The translations under genes were made by a program, and so were the position numbers. From a virus (lineage: Duplodnaviria > Heunggongvirae > Uroviricota > Caudoviricetes), in IMG/VR virus record IMGVR_UViG_2657245131_000016: a DNA stretch of 8,928 nt; one strand, given 5' to 3'. The notes beneath the pieces were generated by a model that saw only the letters and a list, made by a program, of their open reading frames with translations, did not search any database and was not told the origin of the DNA. Shown one piece after another: positions 6,386 through 6,953 of the stretch (the stretch's first letter is position 1; each line of letters opens with the position of its first letter).

Positions 6386-6484
6386 GCGAAAACGGTTTGC
6401 TGTAACGGCAGAGTTAAGTAGGATTGCTGCGGGTGCTTGAGGCTATCTGCCTCGGGCATGAACACCAACGGCAGATAGATAAAA

Positions 6485-6565
6485 GCCCCACCCGACTATA
6501 AATCGAAGTGAGGCCCCTATATGCTCGTCACATATAGATTGCCTCTTACGGACCGAAAGGTCAAG
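6485..6565 (-). ncRNA. predicted Sok-like antisense RNA; coordinates approximate
   Basis: Inferred from hok/sok architecture: the antisense RNA is made from the opposite strand across the mok start region. A TTGACC -35-like hexamer is present on the minus strand (complement of 6559-6564), but I could not identify a convincing -10 or terminator. Confidence 0.3.
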
Positions 6566-6733
6566 GAGAAGCAGGCTATGAAGCAGCAAAAGGCGATGTT
6601 AATCGCCCTGATCGTCATCTGTTTAACCGTCATAGTGACGGCACTGGTAACGAGGAAAGACCTCTGCGAGGTACGAATCCGAACCGGCCAGACGGAGGTC
6701 GCTGTCTTCACAGCTTACGAACCTGAGGAGTAA
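6521..6733 (+). CDS. mok-like upstream reading frame running into hok
   Basis: The ATG at 6521 has GAGG 7 nt upstream and opens a 70-codon frame that continues in frame into hok. An inverted repeat CTATATG/CATATAG (6516-6537) spans this start codon and could sequester it. In hok-family loci hok translation is coupled to mok. Confidence 0.4.
   Translation: MLVTYRLPLTDRKVKEKQAMKQQKAMLIALIVICLTVIVTALVTRKDLCEVRIRTGQTEVAVFTAYEPEE
6578..6733 (+). CDS. hokD: Hok/Gef-family membrane toxin, HokD(RelF)-type
   Basis: The 51-aa product MKQQKAMLIALIVICLTVIVTALVTRKDLCEVRIRTGQTEVAVFTAYEPEE has a single transmembrane helix and the Hok signature, and matches my recollection of E. coli HokD. AAGGAG lies 9 nt upstream of the ATG. 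Confidence 0.9.
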   Translation: MKQQKAMLIALIVICLTVIVTALVTRKDLCEVRIRTGQTEVAVFTAYEPEE

Positions 6734-6802
6734 GAGACCAGGCGGGGGAGAAATCCCTCGCCACCTCTGATGTGTCAGGCATCCTCAACGCACCCGCACT
6801 TA

Positions 6803-6829
6803 ACCCGCTTCGGCGGGTTTTTGTTTTTA
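6803..6829 (+). terminator. rho-independent terminator downstream of hok
   Basis: Stem CCCGC (6804-6808), loop TTCG, stem GCGGG (6813-6817), then TTTTTGTTTTT. A GNRA-type stem-loop (GCGGGGGA gaaa TCCCTCGC, about 6743-6763) follows the hok stop directly. Confidence 0.65.
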
Positions 6830-6953
6830 TTTTCAACGCGTTTGAAGTTCCGGACGGCGCCGGAATAGAATCAAAAATACTTAAGTAGCGCGTAGGGAGA
6901 AGAGGGATGGACCCCGAACAGGGGAGTGCTATTTATCTGGAAGGATTCTGTTG

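Follow-up and report, generated by a model that had tools for sequence, protein, structure and literature searches.

The window analysed here, 8,928 nucleotides (nt) deposited as IMG/VR virus record IMGVR_UViG_2657245131_000016, is a degraded lambdoid prophage of Shiga-toxin Escherichia coli (STEC). Positions 6397–6828 very probably hold a complete, canonical hok/mok/sok type I toxin–antitoxin (TA) cassette, made up of a hokD allele and a sokC-like antisense gene. The toxin coding sequence (CDS) lies at 6578–6733 on the plus strand, where the list of open reading frames (ORFs), Pfam and identity to K-12 hokD all place it, and it is preceded by the Shine–Dalgarno (SD) sequence AGGAG at 6564–6568. 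Its product of 51 amino acids (aa), Hok, is a small membrane peptide of the Hok/Gef family and scores 82.9 bits against the Pfam model HOK_GEF (PF01848; cut-off 22). The CDS is identical at the DNA level to K-12 hokD, and the ORF is annotated as hokD (WP_000813254.1) in identical RefSeq records. An NCBIfam scan of Hok and Mok-Hok gave sub-threshold matches only (48.5 bits, cut-off 73). A second reading frame, mok, opens at ATG 6521 behind the SD GAGG (6510–6513) and continues in frame into hok, so that at the level of sequence the locus has an overlapping mok frame of 70 aa (6521–6733, plus strand), as in K-12 mokC, which has its 3′ end in common with hokC. The HokD CDS is reported to be toxic upon induction, and hok genes to be overrepresented in prophages (bioRxiv 10.1101/2025.08.07.668861). 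A TACG motif at the Tyr47 codon TAC (6716–6719, plus strand) is a putative site for A-to-I editing (adenosine to inosine) by TadA, which would change Tyr to Cys. In K-12 hokD mRNA, TadA edits the equivalent codon from Tyr to Cys at a low level (PMC5630033), given elsewhere as 6% (PMC12214031).

The hok promoter, as read from the sequence (6397–6424, plus strand), would consist of a –35 box TTGCTG (6397–6402), a 16-nt spacer and a –10 box TAGGAT (6419–6424), and it is matched in the alignment by the TATAAT preceding K-12 hokC. Transcription is predicted to start at G6431 and to give a full-length mRNA of ~398 nt (6431–6828, plus strand), judging from the start of the Rfam match, the span of homology with relatives and the fold; in the most divergent relatives homology extends from ~6428 to ~6795. 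The leader aligns with those of K-12 hokC and hokB, and its segment 6431–6580 matches the Rfam model RF01794 with 103.9 bits (gathering score 59). For comparison, K-12 hokC scores 118.3 bits, K-12 hokB 109.7 bits and a 933W-type hokW 113.5 bits. Folded with ViennaRNA, which was used for all folding predictions, the transcript 6431–6828 reaches –166.3 kcal/mol, compared to –122.3 ± 6.5 kcal/mol for dinucleotide shuffles (z –6.8). Both the Rfam match of the leader and the fold strength of the transcript are far beyond chance. RF01794 carries the name sok, but it matches the hok-sense strand, covering the mRNA leader from the 5′ tac element to the hok AUG, in the window as well as in other loci (L003 502–654 and L004 567–718). 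In K-12 the match likewise lies on the mokC/hokC strand, opposite the annotated sokC and sokB. The match thus shows a hok leader and says nothing on an antisense transcript, and we rejected it as evidence for the antisense RNA.

The leader and the 3′ untranslated region (UTR) contain every element of the hok mRNA model for plasmid R1, and the transcript folds as expected from that model. The tac element forms the 5′ end (6431–6442, plus strand), and minimum-energy folds pair it with fbi in the full-length RNA or with ucb in the 3′-trimmed RNA. The fold of the first 32 nt predicts a metastable 5′ hairpin of the nascent transcript (6433–6459, plus strand; –18.8 kcal/mol, z –5.4), the counterpart of the metastable 5′ structure of R1 hok mRNA (PMC9841398). 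The ucb or anti-SD box, AAGCCCC (6483–6489, plus strand), is supported by the folds and by the same pairing in the Rfam consensus structure. In the full-length fold its positions 6486–6489 pair with the mok SD at 6510–6513. The fbi element, CCTCAA-C-GCACCC (6783–6795, plus strand), is complementary to tac apart from one bulged base, and the tac/fbi pairing that closes the 5′ end onto the 3′ end is present in both minimum-energy and centroid folds. When RNAs running from 6431 to 6762–6775 are folded, the structure switches to pairing of tac 6431–6438 with ucb 6483–6489 and the mok SD moves into the sokT hairpin; this alternative pairing after 3′ trimming is also found in the RF01794 consensus structure. 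The sokT hairpin (6510–6545, plus strand; –13.9 kcal/mol, z –4.5) contains the mok SD, the mok ATG (6521–6523) in its stem and the 3′ arm GCCUC, or dcb (6541–6545), and its inner arms, 6517–6523 and 6531–6537, run across the mok ATG. The sokT loop (6524–6530, plus strand) contains CUCG, a motif of the YUNR type, which may act as a U-turn as in the R1 system. A long-range ucb/dcb pairing inside the coding region was also considered and was dropped, since the folds and PMC9841398 put ucb against the mok SD.

Past the hok stop codon lies a GNRA hairpin with a GAAA loop and a 9-bp stem, 6741–6749 with 6754–6762 (6741–6762, plus strand; –18.8 kcal/mol, z –4.8), which by analogy with R1 data (PMC9841398) is predicted to form the protective 3′ end of the trimmed mRNA. 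The terminator scan and the fold place an intrinsic terminator at 6802–6828 (plus strand), with its stem at 6802–6819 followed by a T run. The original prediction, made from the sequence alone, had named an intact Hok peptide, an in-frame mok-like leader, a hairpin across the leader start codon, a GNRA stem-loop right after the stop and a terminator, and all five are found at or close to the positions it gave. It had concluded from them that the locus looks functional rather than decayed, and family models, folding, covariation and the K-12 comparison given below argue for the same view.

Opposite the start of mok, the minus strand has, at the sequence level only, a sok gene for an antisense RNA, complete with a promoter and a terminator of its own. 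The putative promoter (6536–6564, minus strand), taken from the sequence and the alignment with relatives, has a –35 box TTGACC (6564–6559), a 17-nt spacer and a –10 box CAATCT (6541–6536). The annotated sokC and sokB of K-12 both align to 6529→6475, which would be a Sok RNA of ~55 nt. Its 9-nt free 5′ end, GACGAGCAU, is complementary to the first codons of mok, start codon included, and a hairpin and the tail UUUUAUCUAU come after it. The interval 6475–6529 folds with –21.4 kcal/mol on the minus strand (z –4.7) compared to –8.3 kcal/mol on the plus strand (z –1.3), and the core hairpin with –15.3 compared to –7.3 kcal/mol; it is more stable on the minus strand because three of its pairs are G–U there. 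The original prediction had regarded Sok as not clearly delineated, and this no longer holds, given the position of sokC and sokB, the promoter and the strand-specific hairpin with its U tail. The positions of the sok –35 and –10 boxes are conserved across relatives, with TTGACC-17-CACTCT in K-12 sokC and TAATCT or TAACCT with an 18-nt spacer in most hokD-type relatives. SokC of K-12 forms double-stranded RNA with mokC in vivo that is cleaved by RNase III (bioRxiv 10.1101/510842), which implies that the promoter layout TTGACC-17-CAnTCT can work. A simple promoter and terminator scan, in which promoters need at least 9 of 12 consensus matches, did not call the hok promoter, which is weak by this measure, and it missed the Sok terminator, the stem of which has a bulge. 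The sok promoter also fell below its threshold, so these three parts rest on homology and folding. RefSeq annotation of genomes carrying 6475–6529 has no feature in this interval. Minus-strand ORFs overlapping the locus (6443–6589, 6517–6711 and 6708–6836) have no support as genes and were rejected, as they run antisense to a conserved structured mRNA.

Comparison with relatives supports the RNA structure. With the Mok-Hok protein as query, at least 594 relatives were identified in viral contigs, and the 80 loci fetched contained 57 distinct cassettes, all 57 with the full leader. On 40 transcripts including K-12 hokB, 96.3% of cells in the full-length structure are paired, compared to 37–43% with slid partners, an agreement that is inflated because the structure was derived from the window sequence itself and many of the 40 sequences are close kin. 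Changes on both sides of a pair were counted for 30 pairs in the same transcripts, compared to 11.0 ± 2.1 in shuffles. The tac element is invariant in 58 relatives, and the tac/fbi helix is 99.8% paired in the 40 sequences, with one G–C to A–U change, in hokB. In fbi, only two positions vary across the 58 relatives, the bulged base 6789 and 6783, where C>T keeps a G–U pair; one row with a replaced 3′ end (L082) was set aside in this count. In the upper stem of sokT, 6 of 7 pairs are changed on both sides across relatives, and the GNRA hairpin 6741–6762 also shows compensatory changes.

The hokD gene in the Qin prophage of K-12, known as relF of the relBEF operon, has the same Hok coding DNA, a nearly identical 3′ UTR (GNRA hairpin, fbi and terminator) and the same downstream neighbors, rem and DUF968 (ydfU). 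Alignment with K-12 relE–hokD–rem gives essentially complete identity from AGGAGAAGCAGGCTATG (~6564, the hok SD) through the CDS and the 3′ UTR into rem, whereas upstream of ~6564 there is no homology between the window and K-12 relE. The window has the hok promoter, tac, ucb, mok and sok, all of which K-12 hokD lacks, with relE in their place. The absence of canonical components from the K-12 hokD locus through genomic rearrangement has been described previously (PMC12214031). Since the homology begins at the hok SD with relE upstream, K-12 hokD is, as judged from the alignment, a 5′-truncated, rearranged copy and the window carries the full version. Among 5426 complete E. coli genomes, the complete unit, defined as at least 80% of the transcript unit 6425–6800, is present in 2589 and the K-12 relE–hokD junction in 1165, which makes the absence of relBE the usual state. 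The original prediction had contrasted this locus, without an adjacent relBE, with the K-12 arrangement. K-12 hokD indeed follows relB–relE, and relBE is indeed absent here, but these frequencies show that its absence is not anomalous. The window does not have the relBEF arrangement, in which hokD comes directly after relE without a leader of its own; its upstream gene is paa.

Three other systems are informative. K-12 hokC/mokC/sokC (gef) has the same leader architecture, with mok in frame with hok, the same sok layout (TTGACC-17-CAnTCT) and a SokC interval that corresponds to 6529–6475. It is ~80% identical to the window in DNA and differs in the Sok hairpin and, partly, in the target sequence. 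IS186 lies just downstream of K-12 hokC where fbi is expected, whereas the window locus retains fbi. The hokW-sokW module of Sakai prophage Sp5 and 933W-type Stx2 phages is also a lambdoid-prophage Hok/Sok system, with 86.5% DNA identity to the window and 47 of 51 Hok residues identical, but its Sok hairpin is longer by ~20 nt, its sokT sequence differs, and it resides in another part of the phage genome with other neighbors. It has been shown experimentally to be a type I TA system that depends on both RNase III and Hfq; upon mitomycin C treatment SokW falls and HokW rises, and phage release is approximately halved without the locus (PMC8621323). A 933W-type Stx2 phage I also has a match to Rfam sRNA-Xcc1 (RF02221; L090 82–170, 69.1 bits) ~2.4 kb upstream of hokW, which is unrelated to the window cassette. 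Plasmid R1 hok/sok (parB) has the same elements, tac, fbi, ucb, dcb, mok, sokT and Sok, and the same predicted folding pathway (PMC9841398), but it is plasmid-borne and its peptide is divergent: HokW, which is close to the window Hok, has 44% identity with R1 Hok (PMC8621323). Only for plasmid systems has post-segregational killing been shown.

The scheme that we infer for transcription, 3′ processing, Sok expression and toxicity of the cassette is modelled on plasmid R1 hok/sok. A weak promoter would produce a ~398-nt hok mRNA from G6431, the 5′ end of which would be held in the local hairpin while the transcript is nascent. In the complete mRNA, tac (6431–6442) would pair with fbi (6783–6795) and ucb would hold the mok SD, allowing neither translation nor binding of Sok. 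Slow trimming of the 3′ end to the GNRA hairpin would remove fbi, whereupon tac would pair with ucb and the sokT hairpin would present the mok SD and start codon. Translation of mok, in frame into hok, would then lead to synthesis of Hok and membrane damage. An antisense RNA (6529→6475), short and unstable and transcribed from a stronger promoter, would pair with sokT, and the duplex would be degraded. That Sok would be made and repress Hok, and that Hok would kill once Sok is lost, is backed indirectly by hokW-sokW (PMC8621323), the mokC/sokC duplexes (bioRxiv 10.1101/510842) and the toxicity of the HokD CDS (bioRxiv 10.1101/2025.08.07.668861). Possible roles of the cassette, by analogy, are maintenance of the prophage or its cargo, or help with lysis on induction as for hokW-sokW.

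Most of the variability among the cassettes falls in 6485–6529, which covers the Sok hairpin and sokT, and hardly any is seen in the toxin, tac, fbi or the hok SD. The 6485–6529 segment comes in at least two main types: a short hairpin characterizes the window type, and the commoner type is ~20 nt longer with another target sequence. A one-base indel at 6540/6541 accompanies this difference, with ATT-GCC in the window and ATTAGCC in the commoner type (loci L031–L084). With the extra base, the mok frame is shifted relative to hok and terminates at a TGA that overlaps the hok ATG; the sok –10 box and spacer are altered as well, CAATCT with 17 nt in the window and TAATCT with 18 nt elsewhere. The window Sok/sokT type (6468–6548) is found in 620 of the 5426 complete genomes, nearly always as a single copy per genome, and these genomes hold 5–7 hokD-like places each. 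Computed duplex energies between the 5′ part of Sok and its target are –37 to –43 kcal/mol for cognate pairs and –12 to –25 kcal/mol for most non-cognate pairs, with about –28 kcal/mol between the window and K-12 hokC. These modelled energies hint that Sok antitoxins are mostly private and that partial cross-talk with SokC may be possible.

Several observations weigh against a working cassette, in addition to the inflated pair count mentioned above. The hok –10 box is TAGGAT in the window lineage compared to TAGAAT in most relatives, so the toxin promoter may be weaker and the level of hok mRNA low. The sok –10 box, CAATCT, lacks the first T present in most relatives (TAATCT or TAACCT), and the sok promoter was below the threshold of the consensus scan. 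The window prophage is without late genes, which means that a lysis-assisting role of the hokW type could apply only to intact copies elsewhere. Finally, intact chromosomal hok loci in other strains gave neither post-segregational killing nor activation by rifampicin, as far as the work of Pedersen and Gerdes (1999) is represented by its citation in bioRxiv 10.1101/2025.08.07.668861.

Some of these points would fit a cassette that is intact but silent, producing little hok mRNA that stays locked by tac/fbi, and persisting through prophage hitch-hiking and frequent recombination among hok copies without killing or stabilizing anything. The weaker-looking –10 box agrees with this, as do the 5–7 hokD-like places per genome, a high redundancy, and the inactivity of intact chromosomal hokA and hokC in killing assays, in so far as this is conveyed by citations in bioRxiv 10.1101/2025.08.07.668861 and PMC5630033. 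However, compensatory changes and the restriction of fbi variation to the bulge are fine details that would hardly be maintained unless the RNA were under selection, hokW-sokW of a related prophage is active (PMC8621323), and a Sok/sokT type present once per genome is not redundant at the antitoxin level. We consider a silent cassette unlikely. A far more improbable alternative, which we would hardly expect to be true, is that the altered sok –10 box yields no Sok from the window allele, and that Hok is kept in check by mRNA folding only, by SokC acting in trans from the core-genome hokC locus, or by both. It would draw on the missing T in CAATCT and on the computed duplex of the K-12 SokC 5′ part with the window target, –27.8 kcal/mol, which falls between the cognate value of –42.6 kcal/mol and those of other Sok types (–14 to –19 kcal/mol). 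Against it, the promoter of K-12 sokC is laid out in the same way (CACTCT, 17-nt spacer), and this gene is annotated as an expressed small RNA (sRNA), which forms the RNase III-cleaved duplexes with mokC described above (bioRxiv 10.1101/510842). The window moreover has kept the minus-strand hairpin and U tail, including three G–U pairs that are A–C mismatches on the plus strand. A complete hok/mok/sok cassette with its own antisense gene remains the reading we favor.

The cassette is placed in the early-right region of the degraded prophage, with paa on one side and the rem/DUF968 (ydfU-like) block on the other. The segment 6243–6950 is 100% identical to STEC O121 chromosomes (e.g., RM8352) and 99.9% identical to O26, O103, O111 and O145 chromosomes, and the hok transcript unit 6425–6800 is 99.7% identical to O157:H7. 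The same cassette, again 100% identical, is deposited in STEC “PPompW” prophage records under the annotation “gef: phage maintenance protein”. An identical RefSeq record has the genes in the order dicB ... cI-like/cro/replication genes/DUF1627/fimbrial pseudogene/paa/hokD, followed by rem-like/92-aa ORF/DUF968 (frameshifted)/terminase fragment/IS3/... nleA. Q, the lysis genes and most structural genes have been lost from this prophage. The original prediction described the upstream cargo gene (5484–6242) as AcfC-like, and identical RefSeq records agree, giving it as Paa, an adhesin of the AcfC family. At 7561–8806, the DUF968 (ydfU-like) gene has a frameshift close to its 3′ end and reads into a terminase large-subunit fragment, after which the identical RefSeq record has an IS3 element. 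The last positions of the window, 8870–8928 (plus strand), match Rfam isrC (RF01387, an Hfq-binding sRNA) with 59.7 bits (gathering score 39); the match spans positions 1–59 of the 123 in the model and ends at the window edge, and the identical RefSeq record has an IS3 transposase annotated from close to this interval.

The downstream block of hokD, rem, the 92-aa ORF, DUF968 and RusA/Q is constant across many prophages, and the slot directly upstream of the cassette (window 5484–6396) is hypervariable, the flanks of 80 loci (L005–L088) falling into 29 clusters. It contains paa, SIR2-like proteins, Beta_protein (PF14350), a protein resembling peptidase C13, a SEC-C-motif protein, QueH, KilA-N, and a LysR-type regulator and a transposase, both putative and identified by eye, not by a profile scan. 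In K-12, relBE fills the same slot, which looks like a hotspot for cargo or defence genes. The interval from paa to the hok promoter contains a perfect 24-nt palindrome, CCGATATGGGAATTCCCATATCGG (6362–6385), which has no T run after it on either strand and is common to some upstream flanks of hok but not all. From these data we would tentatively put forward, as an idea that is more doubtful than not, that prophage hokD-type cassettes in E. coli are modular, with a near-invariant toxin/tac/fbi backbone and interchangeable Sok/sokT specificity inserts that would provide a private antitoxin for each of the 5–7 copies in STEC. The single-copy state of the window Sok type in 620 genomes supports this, as do the 6540/6541 indel, which switches the mok frame together with the sok –10 box and spacer, and the position of the cassette as the fixed 3′ edge of a hypervariable cargo/defence slot. 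At this edge, the cassette could act as an addiction device for whichever cargo occupies the slot.

The cassette is of a known, widespread and already annotated type (hokD or “gef”). What is added here is the delineation of an unannotated sok gene, the recognition of K-12 hokD as an aberrant form, the strand issue in Rfam and the modular variation of Sok/sokT. The value lies mainly in annotation: K-12 hokD serves as the routine reference yet is a truncated exception, the complete form being approximately twice as common in E. coli, and since RF01794 lies on the sense strand, automated pipelines can mislabel strand and gene. Retention of virulence cargo by the cassette would be an incremental finding if true. 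If it works, an addiction or lysis-timing module beside the adhesin gene paa, in a prophage remnant in which the effector gene nleA is present as well, could help STEC to retain this cargo.

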